Shown: positions 3,047-10,985 of the stretch, in pieces
Numbering within the stretch: the first letter of the stretch is position 1
Layout: each line of letters opens with the position of its first letter
Assembly: GCA_030611045.1 (NCBI GenBank)
Contig: JAUWQN010000003.1
Location: 1-50,158 of the forward strand
Origin: Methanosarcinales archaeon
GTDB taxonomy: Archaea > Halobacteriota > Syntropharchaeia > Alkanophagales > Methanospirareceae
Length of the DNA: 50,158 nt
Direction: 5' to 3'
Translations under genes and position numbers: made by a program
Notes under the pieces: generated by a model
The model's database searches: none
What the model saw: only the letters and a program-made list of their open reading frames with translations
Told to the model about the DNA's origin: nothing

Positions 3047-4096
3047 TTAAAGCTTTGATGTCTTTTCATGAAGTTTGCTAATAACTTTTTGAAAGACGTC
3101 CAGGGCTTTCTCTGCCAAATCTTTATTCGTAAAAATTGGCTCTGATGGAGGGACTTCTTCAAAATTTATTATTGTTTGGTCTCCTTTTGAATGAATTATC
3201 TTGTGTCTCCACTTTATGAACTTCTGCGCTTCAACCAAAATGTCATTTGGGATACCAATTTCCCAGATTTTTAAACCATACCCCTTATTATACGCATCTT
3301 TAAAGGATTCCCAATTTTGAAAGTTTACTGATCTTCTTTCGATAAAAACCTCTAATTCCGTTTTTCCTTGTTTGCTTGTGGTTTCATTTATTTCTCCTTT
3401 GAATTGCTTCCTATATTTCTTGGGAATAAAACGCTCATACAAACCTTCCATATTTACAACCTTACCTTCCTTTTCAAACTCAACAAATCTTGTTCGAGCA
3501 TATACCTCAAAAGCTGTTGTTAGCATGACAATTATCTGTTGAGCTAAAGTCGATTCAAAAAGGAAATCTCCTTTCTTGCAGTTTTCGATCAGTATTCTTA
3601 CTTTCTCCATTTGGAAATCAAAAATCTCTCTTGCCATGGGTTCTAAAACGACTTTTTCGCCAACCTTAACCCTATAAAATCCAACTTGAATGCCTTTATC
3701 TCCTATTTGATAAATTGCTCCATCTTTGCCCACTCGAAACTTAATATTAGGATCTTTAATAGACTTTCCATTTCTAAATTCGCTTCCATAGTCTCCGACG
3801 TAAATGGTATTTTCCTTTTCTGACCATGTGAAAGCAACGAATAACTTTGGAGCATCATGAAAATCTCGAATACTTATTTTTGCGGTTTTCGTTTCGTAAC
3901 TCGGATTACTCTGAATAAACCTAAGATTAAAATCAGAATCTCTTTCTAAAATAAAAACTGTTTGGCCTTTGGCTATTTCAAGTATTCTAATCAACGGTGT
4001 ACCTTCATCAAATAGATTTGATTCACTTACAACAAATTCAACTGTCCCTTCCTGTTCATTTAACTGTTCAACAGGAATCCTAAGTGGGTTATACAT
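3047..4096 (-). CDS. Putative gene-cassette protein: beta-rich N-terminal domain plus C-terminal HEPN-like domain
   Basis: AT-rich 349-aa ORF with a GGAGG RBS. IIVMLTTAFEVY helix, FQN motif and RHKIIH (R-x4-H) near the C-terminus. Confidence 0.65.
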   Translation of the reverse strand: MYNPLRIPVEQLNEQEGTVEFVVSESNLFDEGTPLIRILEIAKGQTVFILERDSDFNLRFIQSNPSYETKTAKISIRDFHDAPKLFVAFTWSEKENTIYVGDYGSEFRNGKSIKDPNIKFRVGKDGAIYQIGDKGIQVGFYRVKVGEKVVLEPMAREIFDFQMEKVRILIENCKKGDFLFESTLAQQIIVMLTTAFEVYARTRFVEFEKEGKVVNMEGLYERFIPKKYRKQFKGEINETTSKQGKTELEVFIERRSVNFQNWESFKDAYNKGYGLKIWEIGIPNDILVEAQKFIKWRHKIIHSKGDQTIINFEEVPPSEPIFTNKDLAEKALDVFQKVISKLHEKTSKL

Positions 4097-4479: not shown

Positions 4480-4731
4480 CTATTCACCCGAAGTCGCATA
4501 TATCTCATACGGCATTATCTTCTTATTCGCCTTCTTCTTCCCTTTCAATTTACTTACAAGGCTAGCGGCTTTCTCCTTCTTCTGGCGCTTCTTCAACCGT
4601 TCCATTATGCTTGCCATCTCATTCTCTTTTTCTTCATCGCCGTATTCTATCTCTTCCTCACTTAGCGCTTCCTCTTCCTCTTCTACTCCCTCTTCTATCT
4701 CCATGCTCCCTTCGGAAACCGCCACACTCAC
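4480..4731 (-). CDS. Pup/UBact-like small protein modifier (83 aa, C-terminus YATSGE)
   Basis: Low-complexity charged protein (Glu-rich then Lys-rich) ending Gly-Glu like Pup (GGE/Q) and UBact (R[ST]G[EQ]). It follows two PafA/Dop homologues. GTG start with purine-rich AAGGGGATGAG upstream. Confidence 0.85.
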   Translation of the reverse strand: MSVAVSEGSMEIEEGVEEEEEALSEEEIEYGDEEKENEMASIMERLKKRQKKEKAASLVSKLKGKKKANKKIMPYEIYATSGE

Positions 4732-4852
4732 GTTAATCTCATCCCCTTTTTACCTTGCAAGCAAATACCGTTACTTAAAAATTATCCTTGTTTCTATTTA
4801 TCATTTTTCATTCATTCATTGATACTGAATAAAACTAACTCTAAATGTTACG

Positions 4853-6442
4853 TTACAGAATCACCTTCTCGGGGTATAATCCTTTCGCGGCTGCTAAAAT
4901 CACCTCTAAGTCTGCACCTTCCATCAGTTCATCACTCATCTCATCCTTATTCAGCATAAACGGCTCGTCCAGTATTATTTTCGCTTTGCCAACCGTCATC
5001 GTTGACCAGCTAATATTTCTTACACGCGAGCGGTATCGTTTCAATAGTTCAACTTTAAAAAATTCTCGCGTCTGCTCGGGTGCATTACTCAATGCATAGT
5101 TCACTCGTTCCGGAAGCGAGGACCAATCCACATCCGGCAATTTGCTCTTTGCGAATGCTAATGAATCCTTTGGATTGAACAGGCAATCACTTATTATACT
5201 TCCTTTTTCGTCATCGAGGTAATACCGCACGCTCTCATCCAGCAATGCATATTGGTTACAGACACTCATGCCTTCAGAGGCAGTTTTTGGCTCGTAATTC
5301 ACAAGCAACGCCAATTTCGTTACCCAGTCAATACCATCCACGTAGTTCTCCAGGCTCCGCGCTTCTAAGTCTTCTATCAGATTATTAAAACAGTTTAGCC
5401 CTATTTCATCCCACTTACCCACTTCTCCACCCTCATTATCCTGCATCTTCTCTATCGCATCTAAATAAAACCGTAAAATGGATACCGCATCTGTTCTCTC
5501 TCCGGTCTTCAATTTTATCGCCCACTCGCAGTCCTGTGTATCCAGTGATAGTTTCTTGAACGCTCTTACCGGGTCTTCTATCTCTGGTGCATCATCTAAA
5601 AAGTCCAACTCAAACGCACGCGTTACCAGCGCTTGTGTGATATCACGCAAGAAAATCGCATATTCAGAACGAAGCGCCTCGTAATGAATATCATGCAGTC
5701 GCCAATACTGATGCGCGGCATGGGGCTGATCTCTCGTGTTCAGGATGCCTCTTCCCGTAGTGGTAGAAAGCGAAGATTTTTGCACAACAAACATCGCTCG
5801 TGGTGAAATAACGAACTTCACTCCCCCTTTACCAACGTTCTCTCCTGAAACAACATCTCCGGATCCGGTGAACAGTATTCTTGTAACGACCCAGGGTATG
5901 AGCGCTTTTTCTACACGACTCCAATCTTTGCACGCTGCCCGGTTTGTGATTATATTCCCATGCGTAGCGTAGGTATTGGTCTTTATCTTTCCCCCTTTAC
6001 CCGTCCGCATACCAGTTTCAGGAGAAGGAGAAGAAGGAGAAGAAGTAAAGAAATTGGCAACATTATTCTTATGGATGACTATTTTCTCCTTTAACGCTAA
6101 ACTCGCCTCTCGCGACCCCACAAAGGCGTAGATCTCTGATGCTTTATCGTATGCCACGGCGTCAAAAGGGTTATTATAAGACGGTGTTGCAATCTCAAGA
6201 TGCCCCATATCGTTATAAATCCGAGAGCCGTTATCACCGTATGAAGACGTTATTTTCGATTCATGCAGCTCTTGCGAGACTTCCGTAATAATGTCCCACG
6301 TCACATCTCTTGAAAATCCGCTCCTTTTTAAACCTTGAATCGCAGCATTAACCAGCAATGAAGGATTTAAGCGTGCTTTCGCACTCACTGGATATTCCTG
6401 CTCAATTCCCCTTATCTTATTCTCTGTCCCTATCCGTGGCAC
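4853..6442 (-). CDS. dop: Dop-like depupylase/deamidase (Pup-ligase/Dop family)
   Basis: GIEQEY, a TWD Dop-loop-like insertion, NGSRIYNDMGHLEIATP (compare Dop NGARLYVDHAHPEYS.PE), YATHGN, RGILNTRDQPHA...RLH and DWVTK. Confidence 0.75.
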   Translation of the reverse strand: MPRIGTENKIRGIEQEYPVSAKARLNPSLLVNAAIQGLKRSGFSRDVTWDIITEVSQELHESKITSSYGDNGSRIYNDMGHLEIATPSYNNPFDAVAYDKASEIYAFVGSREASLALKEKIVIHKNNVANFFTSSPSSPSPETGMRTGKGGKIKTNTYATHGNIITNRAACKDWSRVEKALIPWVVTRILFTGSGDVVSGENVGKGGVKFVISPRAMFVVQKSSLSTTTGRGILNTRDQPHAAHQYWRLHDIHYEALRSEYAIFLRDITQALVTRAFELDFLDDAPEIEDPVRAFKKLSLDTQDCEWAIKLKTGERTDAVSILRFYLDAIEKMQDNEGGEVGKWDEIGLNCFNNLIEDLEARSLENYVDGIDWVTKLALLVNYEPKTASEGMSVCNQYALLDESVRYYLDDEKGSIISDCLFNPKDSLAFAKSKLPDVDWSSLPERVNYALSNAPEQTREFFKVELLKRYRSRVRNISWSTMTVGKAKIILDEPFMLNKDEMSDELMEGADLEVILAAAKGLYPEKVIL

Positions 6443-6455
6443 TTCCTTTCTCCTT

Positions 6456-8192
6456 CTACACTTCCTTGCTTATCTCTGCTATCTTCTTCTTTATTGATTC
6501 CTCATTCCAGCCATCCAGTTCATCGAACCGGAACGTTTTGTTATTAGCATACAACAGGTAATCTAAGTATGGGTTTCTGACGATTCTATCTCTTATTTCC
6601 CTGCTTATCTCATCCTCCCAGCCCCTTATATCATCCTCCTCGGCGAGCAATCGTACGAGAACCTGTCGTGCTCCTTCTCCTCTACTCCGCTCTCGGCAAA
6701 ACACCACTACCGCACTTGGCATTCTCGCGAGTTCCGGATAACGCTCAAACAGCCGTGCATATTCCTCGCTGCTCGGTCTGCTCACATCTATCTTCACATT
6801 TGGCTCCTTGTTTATCGTTATCTTATTCCAGCTTAGTGTCGCATTCTCGAATGCAGACGCAAGTCTAACCCGTAACTCGGCTCGCGAATTCTTCGGTGGA
6901 AAGAGTAACGCTTCTCCTACATCCTCTTCGGTTAGTATTCGTTCCACTCCAATCTTATCCGCAACGCACTCGTATAAGTCGTAATCACAGAGATTGGTGA
7001 AATCAAAAGATGCGGCTATCTTCTTCTCCATCTGATCTTCCATCATATACATGCTCCGGTAATCAAACTTCCCTATTGGGATGTAGTTGTATTCAAAATC
7101 ATTTATCTCGTTCTTTATCGCCCATAACTTCATTACCCATTCTATGCGACGGAAAACGTAAGGATCTTCAAGCAATCCCTGGTCAAACTTGGCGCAAATC
7201 CTCTTAAAAGTATCCAGGGCATATTTATCCCAGTAAGAGACTTTTCGCTCCTCAAACAACTCCTCTATTGCTTCGAGATAGTAACTCGTAAGGTAATCAA
7301 TGGCGGATTCCGTCCTCCCATTCATCAGCTTTATGCGCCAGTCACCTTCCGTATTCGCTGAAATATCTTTAAAAGTATGAAGTGGATTCCAGATCTCTTC
7401 CACATGCGTGATTTTCCCTGACTCTATCGCATCTATTACATACGACGTAATGGCATTGCAGAGCAACCTTGTGACCTCCGAACGAACTCCTTCGCCTGAC
7501 GTAACATGCACACGATATGTATCCCTTGTGCTCAATGGTTCGTCCCGTGTGGATAATATCGGCCACTGCGACGGTGATTCGGTGAAAACCCTTCGAGAAA
7601 CCATCGCTTTGGGCGATATTACGTATTTTATCCCTTCTTTATCCGCCACATAACCTCCAGCGCCAAAGAATATCTTACGAAGCACCAGAAACGGGATGAG
7701 TAAATTCTCTTTGCCTACAAAATTCTTCCGGTCCACTGTATATGACTCGTGCGTGCCCCTGCTGTACCTCTTGTCTATCTCCACGTTTGCTTTCCAGCAC
7801 TGGATATAGGCTAAAGACCTCTTTCTCTTCTTCAATTTCTCTCGGTATCGTTCGTTTGCTTTCTCCACGCCTATCTGCATGTACAGCTCTGCTGCCTTGT
7901 CATATTTAAGCACCTCGAAGGCATCTCTACATTCAGGCGTTGCTATCTCGAGATGCCCGCCCGTGCAGATGTAAATTCGCGATCCATTCCTCAAAAAGCC
8001 ATCGTTCCTTCTACGCAGCTTCGAGCAGATCGCATTCGATTCGTCAAAAAAAGTATAATTCTCGAGTGCGCGAATTACTTCATCCACATGATAAAATCTT
8101 GCATAACGGTACAATCCCGGTGATTCGGAACTTAGGCCCACCCTAAATTCATGCTCGAGCCCTTGCCATTTGTTCAAATCCTCCCTTTCCAT
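6456..8192 (-). CDS. pafA: PafA-like Pup--protein ligase (Pup-ligase/Dop family)
   Basis: GLEHEF, FLRNGSRIYICTGGHLEIATPEC (compare PafA [23 protein letters not shown]), RGTHESY, ILSTRDEPL...RVHV, IEWVMK and PP.NSRAELR. Confidence 0.75.
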   Translation of the reverse strand: MEREDLNKWQGLEHEFRVGLSSESPGLYRYARFYHVDEVIRALENYTFFDESNAICSKLRRRNDGFLRNGSRIYICTGGHLEIATPECRDAFEVLKYDKAAELYMQIGVEKANERYREKLKKRKRSLAYIQCWKANVEIDKRYSRGTHESYTVDRKNFVGKENLLIPFLVLRKIFFGAGGYVADKEGIKYVISPKAMVSRRVFTESPSQWPILSTRDEPLSTRDTYRVHVTSGEGVRSEVTRLLCNAITSYVIDAIESGKITHVEEIWNPLHTFKDISANTEGDWRIKLMNGRTESAIDYLTSYYLEAIEELFEERKVSYWDKYALDTFKRICAKFDQGLLEDPYVFRRIEWVMKLWAIKNEINDFEYNYIPIGKFDYRSMYMMEDQMEKKIAASFDFTNLCDYDLYECVADKIGVERILTEEDVGEALLFPPKNSRAELRVRLASAFENATLSWNKITINKEPNVKIDVSRPSSEEYARLFERYPELARMPSAVVVFCRERSRGEGARQVLVRLLAEEDDIRGWEDEISREIRDRIVRNPYLDYLLYANNKTFRFDELDGWNEESIKKKIAEISKEV

Positions 8193-8220: not shown

Positions 8221-9852
8221 TTAAAAGTGCATTCCTGTGTCTTCCTCTGGCATCTCTTCATATCCTGATACTAATATCTCCTCTGCTCTTCGCTGCACAA
8301 ACTTATCAAATCCTTCTTTTAAGTGCCCCATATTCACACCTATCTCCTCTATGTGCTTATATCGCTTAAGCAAATCCTCTACCTTCTTTCCCACGTCTAA
8401 TATCTCCGAAAAACCTTCTTTATCCCATACGTTCCTCAGCGCATCGTTGCTGATAGCACCTTTTTTCATCATCAGCATTGTCCGCTCCTCCAACGCCTTA
8501 TCTCTCGCATAACCAAATATCTGCGCGATGAACCGCCCGGTTATTGCATCCTCTCGCTTTATCCGCCCTATTTCTGTCTCAACGTACGTGTCACTATACA
8601 TGTAACGGACAATCTCTTCCACCAGATAGGTCCTCGCCTCTTCTTCTCCCCCTTTCTCCTTTATCAGGTAGCGGTCGAGCGGGATTTTTTTTGCGTAAAT
8701 CCGTGCGATGGAATAAGCAGCTTCTCTCTCTGGCTTCGAGACCTCGATTATCTTGTCAAATCGCGACCTAAATGCGGAATCTATAAGATGCAGCCGGTTT
8801 GTTGCACCGATTACAGTGAGGTGTGGATGCAGGGCGTAAAAACCATCTAAAATATCCAGTAGTTGTCCCGTAACTCTTTCCGGTGCACCGGACGACCCTG
8901 TGTACATACCTCTTTCTTGCGCTAAAGCATCTATCTCATCAAAGAAGATTACACCATAATCGTTCTCTCCCTCCTCTAATTTATCGTTCGCAGCCTTGAA
9001 CACCATCCTTACATTCTTCTCTGACTCGCCAAGCCACATGCTGAACAGCTCTCCGGCACCCACCTTTACAAATTCACAGTTGGGTAATGTAGATGCTAAT
9101 GCTTTTGCGCACATTGTCTTCCCACATCCAGGCGGACCGTACATCAGTATCCGGCGGGAACTTTCGCCATATTTAGAGTAATCCTCAGGATTTACCATCG
9201 GAAGAATAATGCTCTCTATCAAGTCCTGTTTCACTTCCTTCAAGCCACCGATATTATTAAAACTCACTTCAGGGCTCTTTGTGACTTCATAGCGAGAGTA
9301 CTCCTTTGCCGTATAACTTTTCTTTATATCAAGCGTACCGGGAAGGAGTCCTACCTTCATCCCCTCTTTTACCGTTTCCTTTTCTTCATCCCGCAGCCTT
9401 TTATATATCCTACCACGACCTTTTCCAGTGGATACTTCAACTATCCAGCCATCACCATCATCTTCCTTTCTCAGCTCCTCTACCTCTCCAACCTCTAAAT
9501 CAACCATCCGGTCATATATGTTGGTGATTCCTATGGTAAACCCACTGGGGTTATTCCTATCCGGGATGCGTCCTATGAACACGTACTTTCCCTCTTGTAG
9601 CTCCTCTATCTCCTTCTCAGTAAGCGTCCCGTAAGGTAAAGATTTTAATGCCCCGTTTAAATTCACGATGGCACCGTCGTTAAGTTTCTCAACCACGAAT
9701 CCGCAGTCTAATGGTGGTGCCCTTGATTTTGAAACAAGCTTCTCTAAATCCTCTTTATATGCTTCTGTCTCCTCGTATTTCCTTCTTAACCTTCGATAAT
9801 CGCTCTCTAACCGCTCATACTCGTATCTTGGAATATAATCCTCTTGTTCCAT
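8221..9852 (-). CDS. Proteasome-associated AAA+ ATPase, ARC/Mpa-like
   Basis: N-terminal coiled coil, two OB-like segments, F.NIGGL, Walker A GPPGCGKT, pore loop MWLGESE, Walker B FFDEID, IGATNR...D.AF..RFD and C-terminus TGMHF. First gene of the pafA/dop cluster. Confidence 0.85.
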   Translation of the reverse strand: MEQEDYIPRYEYERLESDYRRLRRKYEETEAYKEDLEKLVSKSRAPPLDCGFVVEKLNDGAIVNLNGALKSLPYGTLTEKEIEELQEGKYVFIGRIPDRNNPSGFTIGITNIYDRMVDLEVGEVEELRKEDDGDGWIVEVSTGKGRGRIYKRLRDEEKETVKEGMKVGLLPGTLDIKKSYTAKEYSRYEVTKSPEVSFNNIGGLKEVKQDLIESIILPMVNPEDYSKYGESSRRILMYGPPGCGKTMCAKALASTLPNCEFVKVGAGELFSMWLGESEKNVRMVFKAANDKLEEGENDYGVIFFDEIDALAQERGMYTGSSGAPERVTGQLLDILDGFYALHPHLTVIGATNRLHLIDSAFRSRFDKIIEVSKPEREAAYSIARIYAKKIPLDRYLIKEKGGEEEARTYLVEEIVRYMYSDTYVETEIGRIKREDAITGRFIAQIFGYARDKALEERTMLMMKKGAISNDALRNVWDKEGFSEILDVGKKVEDLLKRYKHIEEIGVNMGHLKEGFDKFVQRRAEEILVSGYEEMPEEDTGMHF

Positions 9853-9959: not shown

Positions 9960-10985
9960 ATGAAAGAGGAGAAGAGAAAAATACAACTCACCGGTGGTTC
10001 AACATTTACTATCTCGCTTCCTATAAAATGGGCACGAGAGGTGGGTGTAAGGCAGGGAGATGAGCTCTCGTTAATTCAACGTGGTGATAAATCACTCGTC
10101 TTAACCCCGTTGAAGGATAAAAAAGAGCAGATAAAATGCGCAGAACTCATTCTCTCGGAAAAAGAGAGCTTTGAGGGCAACTTCAGGTATCTTATCGCTC
10201 ATTACCTCGTTGGGTATGATGTTGTAAAGCTGTTATCGCCAGGCGGTTTTGAAGCTGAGGAGAGAAAGAGGATAAAGGCGGAAGTGAGGAAGCGGCTGAT
10301 AGGCATGGAGGTTGTTGGCGAATCGTCAAAGGAGATAGTGCTCAAAAGTTTCTTGAAATATGAGGACTTCACGCTCCAGGATGCGATACGGAGTATGTCC
10401 AAGATAATTTTATCAATGCACGAAGATACGATTTATGCACTTGAGAAAAGCGATCATAACCGTGCAAAGGATGTTATAGAGCGGGATAACGAGATAGATA
10501 GATTTTATTTGCTCATTGTTCGGCAGCTTAAGGCGGTGATAAGAGACCCAGAGCTTGCGAAGAAAATAGGGGAGAGCAGACAGCGAGATAGCCTGGGCTA
10601 CCGGATTATCGTGAAGAATATGGAGCGGATAGGTGATCATATCGAGAGCATAGCAAAGAATTCTATGATGATGAGCACACCGGTAGGGCTAAAAAGCATA
10701 AAAGAGCTCGGCACTCGCACGAGAACACTCTTTACCCAGACCTTAGCTTCCTTATCAAACAATGATATAGTAAAGGCGAATGAAGCGATAAGAGATGCAA
10801 ATGCGCTGGTTGATATGGTTGAAGAGATAGATGAGCGAATCTTAGCAGAGGAATGGAGTGTTACAGATAAGATACACGCTATTTCTATACTGGAGAGTTG
10901 GGGGCGAATAGCGAAGTATTGCGAGGATATAGCAGAGGTAACGATAAATCTTGGGATAGAGGGCGTAGAGGAATCAGAGTTTTAA
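9960..10985 (+). CDS. phoU: Phosphate uptake regulator (AbrB/MazE N-terminal domain plus two PhoU domains)
   Basis: RKIQLTGGSTFTISLPIKW, RDNEIDRFY and ERIGDH. Confidence 0.9.
   Translation: MKEEKRKIQLTGGSTFTISLPIKWAREVGVRQGDELSLIQRGDKSLVLTPLKDKKEQIKCAELILSEKESFEGNFRYLIAHYLVGYDVVKLLSPGGFEAEERKRIKAEVRKRLIGMEVVGESSKEIVLKSFLKYEDFTLQDAIRSMSKIILSMHEDTIYALEKSDHNRAKDVIERDNEIDRFYLLIVRQLKAVIRDPELAKKIGESRQRDSLGYRIIVKNMERIGDHIESIAKNSMMMSTPVGLKSIKELGTRTRTLFTQTLASLSNNDIVKANEAIRDANALVDMVEEIDERILAEEWSVTDKIHAISILESWGRIAKYCEDIAEVTINLGIEGVEESEF

Follow-up and report, generated by a model that had tools for sequence, protein, structure and literature searches.

An archaeal Pup_ligase-family enzyme with a conserved cysteine at the position of the catalytic aspartate, encoded in a candidate Pup-like tagging operon

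PafA and Dop, the two Pup_ligase-family enzymes of the bacterial Pup-proteasome system, depend on a catalytic aspartic acid. In the available text of the reports concerned, M. tuberculosis PafA D57N carried out neither pupylation nor transfer and Asp95 of Dop is called 'absolutely required' (PMC5358908), while PafA D64N is described as 'catalytically inactive' (bioRxiv 10.64898/2026.04.10.717840). What this residue does is, as far as the same portions of the literature go, still argued: it has been put forward as PafA's catalytic base (PMC3511204; D64 in bioRxiv 10.64898/2026.04.10.717840), it most likely activates the hydrolytic water in Dop, where it is D94 (PMC8599861), and it has also been proposed as a direct nucleophile in Dop (PMC13091356; PMC5358908). 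Here, we analyze an archaeal member of this family that has a cysteine at this position. It is encoded in a stretch of 50,158 nucleotides, which we call the window, from a Methanosarcinales archaeon of the family Methanospirareceae (GenBank assembly GCA_030611045.1, contig JAUWQN010000003.1, positions 1 to 50,158 of the forward strand), in an operon whose order is AAA ATPase, Cys enzyme, Asp-bearing paralogue and a small protein ending in Gly-Glu.

We found no description of an archaeal Pup-like operon with its own tag in the literature searched, and no paper linking pupylation with anaerobic methanotrophic archaea (ANME), Methanophagales, DPANN or Nanoarchaeota. The available text of an ANME comparative-genomics paper (PMC9012536) contains none of the terms pupylation, PafA, Pup, proteasome and ubiquitin, and a 2020 survey of Dop and PafA names, in its accessible part, bacterial phyla only, while the alignments in its supplement might include archaeal or Cys-bearing sequences (PMC7947786). 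A dedicated tagging system in these organisms would be of wider interest because a large part of marine-sediment methane is consumed by ANME-1, which cannot be cultivated axenically, as stated in the available portion of PMC9012536. Furthermore, a cysteine fixed across a whole archaeal order, and a second time elsewhere, is a ready-made natural test of the aspartate's role: activity of the Cys enzyme by way of a thioester would show that this active site permits a covalent route, and activity without one would identify the residue as a base. Our preferred reading, which we hold tentatively, is that the Cys enzyme is a working, ATP-using enzyme that handles the small protein as a tag, and that its cysteine may be the catalytic nucleophile, forming a covalent thioester with the tag.

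The cysteine and its conservation

The gene of the Cys enzyme (type A) lies on the minus strand at 6456..8192 and encodes 578 residues. The protein matches the Pfam family Pup_ligase (PF03136) with 192.6 bits (cut-off 25) over profile positions 55-440 of 441, and it and its Asp paralogue (type B) are the only two PF03136 genes in the 1.54 Mb, 99%-complete genome. In the translation of the open minus-strand reading frame (8192..6456), residues 70-88 read GSRIYICTGGHLEIATPEC; Cys76 has the coding-strand codon TGC (7965-7967; plus strand, gca). A phmmer alignment with C. glutamicum PafA (4b0t_A), which pairs residues 64-156 with chain residues 52-138 starting with 64 opposite 52, places Cys76 opposite D64 with no gap around the site, in the very column that holds the engineered Asn of PafA D64N (4bjr_A). 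Aligned by phmmer with Acidothermus Dop (4b0r_A), where residue 66 pairs with chain residue 84, Cys76 falls opposite D94 (positions hand-counted). The catalytic loops of the Cys enzyme and PafA, C-T-G-G-H-L-E and D-V-G-S-H-P-E, respectively, are equal in length.

An initial annotation of the window had aligned this cysteine by eye with the family's aspartate, had pointed out that the paralogue retains Asp, and had stated that the residue is required in PafA and Dop. The alignments above bear out the first point, Asp78 in the reading frame 6442..4853 the second, and the published mutants (PMC5358908; bioRxiv 10.64898/2026.04.10.717840), within the limits of the text available, the third. The annotation had also allowed that another Asp or Glu might stand at the catalytic position; the loop C-T-G-G-H is free of acidic residues and has the length found in PafA. 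A misalignment that masks an acidic loop residue is ruled out by the gapless PafA alignment, the equal loop length and the composition of the loop itself.

An AlphaFold model of the Cys enzyme, built from 62 sequences (predicted local distance difference test (pLDDT) 85.1; predicted template-modelling score (pTM) 0.84), places Cys76 immediately past strand 72-75, in the loop that leads toward strand 81-84. The best Foldseek matches are Dop (7oxy_A, E 4.7e-28, template-modelling score TMt 0.78) and PafA (4bjr_B, E 1.5e-26, TMt 0.73), followed by YbdK, glutamate-cysteine ligases and glutamine synthetases. Model and Foldseek matches agree with the fold of the Pup_ligase family, an N-terminal beta-sheet cradle and a C-terminal domain of small size; the conserved catalytic Asp that the family has between the third and fourth strands is missing. 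By profile, fold and motifs, the Cys enzyme is thus a member of the Pup_ligase family, minus the feature that defines the family's chemistry. It scores 156.6 bits against the PafA equivalog TIGR03686 (cut-off 551.3) and 150.8 bits against the Dop equivalog TIGR03688 (cut-off 492.3). Orthology to either PafA or Dop was rejected on account of these scores, far below the cut-offs, and of the position in the tree described below. The labels 'PafA-like' and 'Dop-like' used in the initial annotation are weakly justified for the same reasons, both paralogues lying outside the classical clade; what stands of them is that the Asp paralogue is somewhat nearer to Dop.

Past the PafA/Dop core, the Cys enzyme carries a C-terminal extension of ~110 residues (approximately residues 460-578; window 6456-6870, minus strand). 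Residues 501-542 are modelled with very low confidence, while the last ~30 residues are modelled confidently and are shared (motif ...DGWNEE...) with short third copies of the enzyme, considered below.

Among the 120 best relatives listed, 115 cover the site (the other five are fragments without the region), and all 115, which range from 44 to 97% identity, have Cys, so that the possibility raised in the initial annotation, that the orthologues all carry Asp, does not hold. Cluster P0133 (33% identity) likewise has Cys. The codon was compared over 35 distinct DNA contexts: 33 have TGC and two have TGT, and no other residue occurs. A sequencing or assembly error, or a pseudogene, is ruled out by the open frame, by the 115 concordant relatives and by these 35 contexts, and on the strength of this sequence record we regard Cys76 as neither error nor decay. 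Across the family, Asp occupies the column in 135 of the 145 clusters taken as representatives, Cys in four (P0062, P0121, P0133 and P0167), and His, Gln, Glu and Ile in one each, the remaining two being fragments; these representatives (50% clustering, at least 300 residues) are from among the matches listed, 150 of 1934 family hits. P0167 was wrongly placed by MAFFT, and its Cys was confirmed by BLASTP. The names that public sources give to close homologues place the host organism in ANME-1 (Methanophagales / Methanospirareceae). One homologue, P0019, which is 86% identical, comes from a metagenome-assembled genome labelled by its source as a Desulfobacteria bacterium; all other named homologues are archaeal, and the label is likely a binning or labelling mix-up between ANME-1 and a bacterial partner.

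Of the 65 genomes of the window's family, 63 have the Cys enzyme with an adjacent Asp paralogue, as do both genomes of a sister family, and the pair is absent from all 11 genomes that represent the four remaining families of the class. A genome search with a 12-sequence alignment as the query gave the same picture across a sample of the phylum: 38 of 38 genomes of the window's family, two of two of the sister family and none of 260 others. In a FastTree phylogeny of 90 rows, whose support values are to be read with caution, a single clade (support 100) unites both archaeal paralogues and leaves out the 57 classical PafA/Dop-like rows; within it, the Cys rows group together (support 97), P0133 being their sister, and are nested among Asp-bearing relatives. 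One such relative belongs to an uncultured archaeon (locus L059, 1981-10252), whose operon encodes a 785-residue AAA ATPase, a 395-residue protein, proteasome beta and alpha subunits, a type A enzyme, a type B enzyme and a tag. Its type A enzyme keeps Asp (VYVDLELVE), and its tag has 61 residues and ends in YSTGGE. As this operon carries Asp, the system would be older than the change, and the exchange of Asp for Cys would have occurred on the branch leading to ANME-1 and the sister family. We take the exchange, from these sequences, to be a lineage-specific change. The 785-residue ATPase of L059 is a double-AAA protein, the 395-residue protein is of unknown family, and the genome has two further proteasome pairs.

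The exchange arose a second time, independently, in the group of P0167. This cluster and P0361-P0363 (62-100% identical) carry Cys in the motif R-x-Y-[VI]-C-[VI]-S-G-N-H-P-E, and of the 120 proteins listed around the group, all 116 others have Asp (65 by pattern, 51 by eye). One of these Cys genes (L062:8001-9293) is the only PF03136 gene in a Nanoarchaeota-labelled genome of 0.9 Mb, where its surroundings are housekeeping genes and it is flanked by an aIF5A-like gene and a small zinc-ribbon-like open reading frame (ORF); neither a tag homologue nor a second paralogue was found in that genome. Some ANME-1 genomes have, in addition, a third, stand-alone copy of the Cys type outside the operon, 494-525 residues long (L036:2039-3523, L037:4418-5923 and L038:4095-5672).

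The rest of the active site and the predicted complex with the tag

We compared the residues of the Cys enzyme with the 53 columns whose conservation in the 135 Asp-type representatives is 80% or more and determined that 45 are identical. The residues kept are E13, E15, N69, G70, R72, Y74, H80, E82 and T85-P-E-C88 (including E87) in the N-terminal part and N136, H148, E149, Y151, R172, G177, G179, S193, R227 and H229 further on. They include the signature GhExE, as described in the accessible text of PMC2588565, in the form G11-L-E13-H-E15, and every Glu, His and Arg of the ATP/Mg/phosphate site is kept. In a hand-counted alignment, R216 of the Cys enzyme corresponds to R227 of Dop, a phosphate-binding residue according to the available part of PMC8599861. 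The departures are D76C, R195K, R210W and five conservative changes. The Cys enzyme is also the better conserved of the two paralogues: over 14 matched loci its identity to the window's copy is 71-90%, as against 58-79% for the Asp paralogue, and it is the higher of the two in all 14.

Among the residues kept, His80 and Cys88 lie no more than 12 residues from Cys76 and are themselves conserved, and cysteines are common as ligands and as switches, so that Cys76 could in principle be regulatory or metal-binding, either as a redox switch or as a ligand together with one of these two. We consider this very improbable. His80 (87% of Asp-type rows) and Cys88 (81%) are conserved throughout the family whatever residue is at position 76, some Cys-type copies have Leu instead of His80, and the hosts are strict anaerobes, which makes a redox switch less obvious.

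The candidate tag is an 83-residue protein encoded on the minus strand at 4480..4731, identified by synteny, homologues and co-folding. It has an acidic N-terminus, a Lys-rich helix in mid-protein and a C-terminal SGE within the invariant tail KIMPYEIYATSGE; its last residue, Glu83, is encoded at 4483-4485. Of 15 loci, 14 have its ORF immediately behind the type B gene, and in the sister family a tag with the same ending is found on another contig than the enzymes. A database search returned 76 homologues, of which 73 end in Gly-Glu and three in Gly-Gln; where named they are 'hypothetical', with one JGI entry labelled ribosomal protein L4. An alternation of Glu and Gln at the C-terminus is likewise known from Pup, where it requires a deamidase, and the three tags ending in Gly-Gln imply that a deamidase activity would be needed in some lineages. 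The tag matched no family in Pfam or NCBIfam, and no match to Pup was obtained even at E-values up to 10. In the window's genome, the Pup family PF05639 gave a single sub-threshold match (16.7 bits, cut-off 27) inside a 357-residue frame on another contig, and in two other archaeal genomes it gave no match at E-values up to 1.

When residues 1-470 of the Cys enzyme were co-folded with ATP, two Mg and residues 38-83 of the tag, the median interface score (ipSAE) of three runs was 0.88, compared with 0.00 for the best of three controls; the mark used was reached by 58 of 80 solved complexes and by two of 110 mismatched pairs. The runs share at least 96% of their contacts, and the pLDDT of the partner is at least 82. 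On the enzyme's side, the predicted interface comprises residues 15, 17, 19, 21, 76-80, 138-140, 142-146, 148 and 210 and a long groove formed by residues 363-430. As the PafA-Pup complex (4bjr) has been solved, this result may partly reflect likeness to it. The co-fold thus supports, as a prediction, binding of the tag by the Cys enzyme, and we consider the operon, on the combined strength of gene content and model, a candidate Pup-like tagging system with a tag of a new family.

The interface also contains Glu138 (codon 7779..7781, minus strand), an acidic residue that alignment and co-fold bring forward as a candidate helper or relocated base. Glu is found at this column in all 16 rows of the Cys clade, where most Asp-type archaeal relatives have Ala. 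According to phmmer, Glu138 aligns with the Asp of PafA 'knnvD', and the column is Asp in 23 of 27 classical rows and in the sister rows P0128 and P0129. The idea that Glu138 uniquely compensates for the lost acid is weakened by these occurrences; because the classical enzymes too have Asp at the column, it is no demonstrated replacement.

Glu138 also figures in the possibility that the Cys enzyme is an active ligase with PafA-type chemistry and no covalent intermediate, in which a lysine would attack the gamma-glutamyl phosphate directly, Cys76 or Glu138 would be the base, and Cys76 would otherwise mainly shape the site. The intact ATP/Mg/phosphate residues, the invariance of Glu138 within the Cys clade as against Ala in most Asp-type archaeal relatives, and the contact of both 76-80 and 138-140 with the tag in the co-fold all agree with such a ligase, as does the proposal, in the available text of PMC3511204 and bioRxiv 10.64898/2026.04.10.717840, that the PafA Asp is a base and no nucleophile. 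However, the classical PafA and Dop enzymes that have Asp at column 138 (23 of 27) need the loop Asp nonetheless, and P0128 and P0129 have Asp at 138 as well. Moreover, if a base were all that is needed, Glu, His or Asp should have been kept, yet two lineages independently fixed Cys, and the step from an Asp codon to a Cys codon takes two nucleotide changes. We regard this non-covalent route as unlikely, though worth keeping in view.

The Asp paralogue and the operon

The Asp paralogue, encoded on the minus strand at 4853..6442, has 529 residues and matches PF03136 with 212 bits (cut-off 25). It reads GSRIYNDMGHLE at the site, with Asp78 (codon 6209..6211, minus strand), which is Asp in all 18 type B rows. 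Its model has a pLDDT of 92.1. The hidden Markov model (HMM) scores are 174.8 bits for Dop and 143.3 bits for PafA, and Foldseek likewise ranks Dop (4b0r, 1.8e-27) before PafA (4bjr_B, 6e-23), with TMt values of 0.85-0.87 and 0.69-0.75, respectively; by HMM score and fold, the Asp paralogue is somewhat nearer to Dop. Residues 137-148 form a Ser/Pro/Gly/Lys-rich insert with pLDDT below 50.

This paralogue is identical in just 38 of the 53 family-conserved columns. Throughout the 18 type B rows, Ser88 replaces Glu, Ala129 replaces Asp and Gly162 replaces Glu, acids that every other group keeps, while Asp78, Arg231, Arg237, Arg248 and His250 are kept in all 18. The two paralogues, with their different sets of kept and lost columns, therefore deviate in complementary ways, and the Asp paralogue, without the three conserved acids, is doubtful as the sole ATP-dependent ligase.

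These observations bear directly on whether the Cys enzyme might be no ligase at all, but a tag-binding pseudoenzyme that reads the free or conjugated tag, working with the Asp paralogue or handing tagged proteins to the AAA ATPase, while the Asp paralogue does the chemistry. The required Asp is gone, PafA D64N is inactive, and Trp210 and Leu220 replace residues conserved elsewhere; predicted binding in the groove is something that a non-catalytic reader would need as well, the third copies keep Cys without the phosphate-site motif TRDEP, and the Asp paralogue retains its Asp78, three Arg and His250 without exception. A reader, however, would have no need for E13, E15, E82, E87, H148, E149, R172, R216, R227 and H229, all of which are kept, nor for one specific residue at position 76, where Cys is nonetheless invariant. 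The higher conservation of the Cys enzyme in all 14 loci, the substitutions at Ser88, Ala129 and Gly162 of the partner that would have to do the chemistry, and the Nanoarchaeota-labelled genome whose only family member is of the Cys type also speak against it. The inactive scaffold proposed in the initial annotation is weakened by much the same facts (45 of 53 columns kept, the invariant Cys, the 14 loci and the independent recurrence); we judge a pseudoenzyme unlikely, if still a serious contender.

An exchange of roles is less probable still. In this case, the Cys enzyme would be the remover or maturase, a Cys isopeptidase or deamidase whose thiol attacks the Gln or isopeptide amide directly, as in glutamine amidotransferases, and the Asp paralogue would be the ligase. 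The three tags ending in Gly-Gln would provide a substrate, Cys is the better nucleophile for amides, and Foldseek places Dop slightly above PafA for the Cys enzyme (4.7e-28 as against 1.5e-26). The direct-nucleophile role proposed for the Dop Asp in the accessible text of PMC13091356 and PMC5358908 points the same way. Nevertheless, it is the Asp paralogue that is the more Dop-like by both HMM score and TMt, and its loop, D-M-G-H-L-E, has the length found in Dop, whereas the loop of the Cys enzyme has that of PafA. The Asp paralogue, moreover, lacks the three conserved acids. The spacing between the GxExE and NG motifs is 54 in the Cys enzyme (54-55 in both paralogues) as compared with ~77 in Dop (hand-counted), and therefore, judged by spacing alone, neither paralogue has room for the ~40-residue Dop loop.

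The first gene of the operon (8221..9852, minus strand) encodes a 543-residue AAA+ ATPase of the proteasome-activating-nucleotidase (PAN) or Mpa-like type (Pfam AAA, 121 bits); in the related loci read, its place is immediately upstream of the Cys enzyme. Its best NCBIfam scores are 175.3 bits for the PAN subfamily and 157.9 bits for pup_AAA (TIGR03689), all far below the cut-offs. The window's genome has two proteasome genes, both unlinked to the operon. In two RNA libraries, each from a different study, there are contigs that reach into the tag, type B and type A genes, with 7956-8150 of the last included, and into the AAA gene. Other parts, such as 4768-5871, have no such cover, and one of three RNA runs gave none on this stretch; these gaps say nothing about expression.

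Just downstream of the tag gene, a 349-residue ORF (3047-4096, minus strand) has a sub-threshold match to HEPN (PF18735, 21.7 bits, cut-off 28.4). At 48-1860, two overlapping frames on opposite strands match DDE transposases (PF01609, 37.6 bits; PF13546, 125.2 bits), which puts a mobile element at a distance of ~2.6 kb from where the operon ends. Divergent from the operon, an ORF at 9960-10985 (plus strand) encodes a MazE/AbrB-type antitoxin-like N-terminal domain together with PhoU domains.

Possible chemistry and comparison with known systems

A decaying or merely structural protein is made less likely by the strict conservation of Cys, the otherwise complete ATP/Mg/phosphate site, the higher conservation than that of the partner, and the recurrence of the exchange. 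As the inactive-scaffold reading is thereby weakened, altered chemistry, one of the options named in the initial annotation, is the one that the sequences favour; its thioester part we infer. We put the thioester first because a thiol at the place of PafA's carboxylate would be expected to attack an acyl phosphate. An active-site Cys forms a thioester from an acyl phosphate in gamma-glutamyl phosphate reductase (ProA), aspartate semialdehyde dehydrogenase and GAPDH, and ubiquitin E1 and E2 pass their cargo along a thioester relay.

In the reading that we tentatively prefer, the tail of the tag would occupy the conserved groove so that its C-terminal Glu reaches the active site, as in the co-fold, and its gamma-carboxylate would be phosphorylated by ATP as in PafA, which the intact ATP/Mg/phosphate residues would allow. 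The Cys76 thiolate, standing where PafA has the Asp carboxylate, would then attack the gamma-glutamyl phosphate to give an enzyme-tag thioester, and the amine of a target lysine would resolve it. By analogy with Mpa, the tagged protein might subsequently be passed to the AAA ATPase of the operon and the 20S proteasome of the cell.

Several points weigh against this reading. The proximity of Cys76 to the tag is a contact in a predicted interface. A classically conserved Arg has become Trp210, and His231 of Dop is Leu220. The inactivity of PafA D64N indicates that the site is sensitive to substitution. The invariant Glu138, which contacts the tag in the model, might provide the acid/base function and leave the Cys a lesser role. 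The third copies keep Cys although they lack TRDEP, and often have Leu for His80, which suits binding no less than catalysis. The RNA-library contigs are a weak hint of transcription of the operon, as such libraries can contain DNA. Finally, well-conserved pseudoenzymes exist, so that conservation is no proof of catalysis.

An extension of the thioester chemistry would engage both paralogues in a two-step relay inside a glutamine-synthetase fold, convergent with ubiquitin E1/E2. The Cys enzyme would phosphorylate the C-terminal Glu of the tag and capture the tag as a thioester on Cys76, and the Asp paralogue, which keeps the Asp and the phosphate-site Arg without the three metal-site acids, would pass the tag to lysines by means of its Asp as a base, or would remove it. 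We offer this as speculation with a rather small chance of being right. If correct, tagging by way of a thioester would be without precedent both in the Pup-ligase family and in an archaeal Pup-like system, and it would speak directly to the question of whether the PafA and Dop Asp is a base or a nucleophile.

The likeness of the Cys enzyme to ProA-type enzymes and to E1/E2 is confined to the proposed chemistry; the folds are unrelated, no likeness in sequence or structure was found, nor was any looked for, and the comparison is a mechanistic lead rather than a family assignment. Much closer is Dop (Acidothermus 4b0r and 7oxy; M. smegmatis 9cku), the best Foldseek and phmmer match for both archaeal paralogues. 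Its phosphate-binding Arg227 and His241 (available text of PMC8599861) correspond to Arg216 and His229 of the Cys enzyme, whereas Asp94 and His231 of Dop are replaced by Cys76 and Leu220.

PafA (C. glutamicum 4b0t and 4bjr; M. tuberculosis) shares with the Cys enzyme the family, the fold and the length of the catalytic loop, as well as the motifs GxExE, RxYx-, HxE-TPEC, HExY and RxH. Its tag, small and of the disordered type, is predicted to be bound by its C-terminal Glu in the groove that PafA uses, and an AAA unfoldase is encoded beside the Cys enzyme, as with PafA. The Cys enzyme differs from PafA in having Cys for Asp64 and a C-terminal extension of ~110 residues, modelled in part with low confidence, in branching outside the classical rows, in its archaeal host and in a tag that is unrelated in sequence to Pup.

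UBact is a variant of the Pup system in Gram-negative bacteria, with a similar gene set. Like the bacterial Pup-proteasome system (Mpa/ARC, Dop, Pup, PrcBA and PafA), the archaeal operon combines an AAA unfoldase, two Pup_ligase-family paralogues and a tag ending in Gly-Glu or Gly-Gln, and the Asp-bearing operon of L059 has dedicated proteasome alpha and beta genes as well. The operon in the window differs from the bacterial system in being archaeal, in having a tag that is not Pup, in its unlinked proteasome genes and in the Cys that one of its two enzymes carries.

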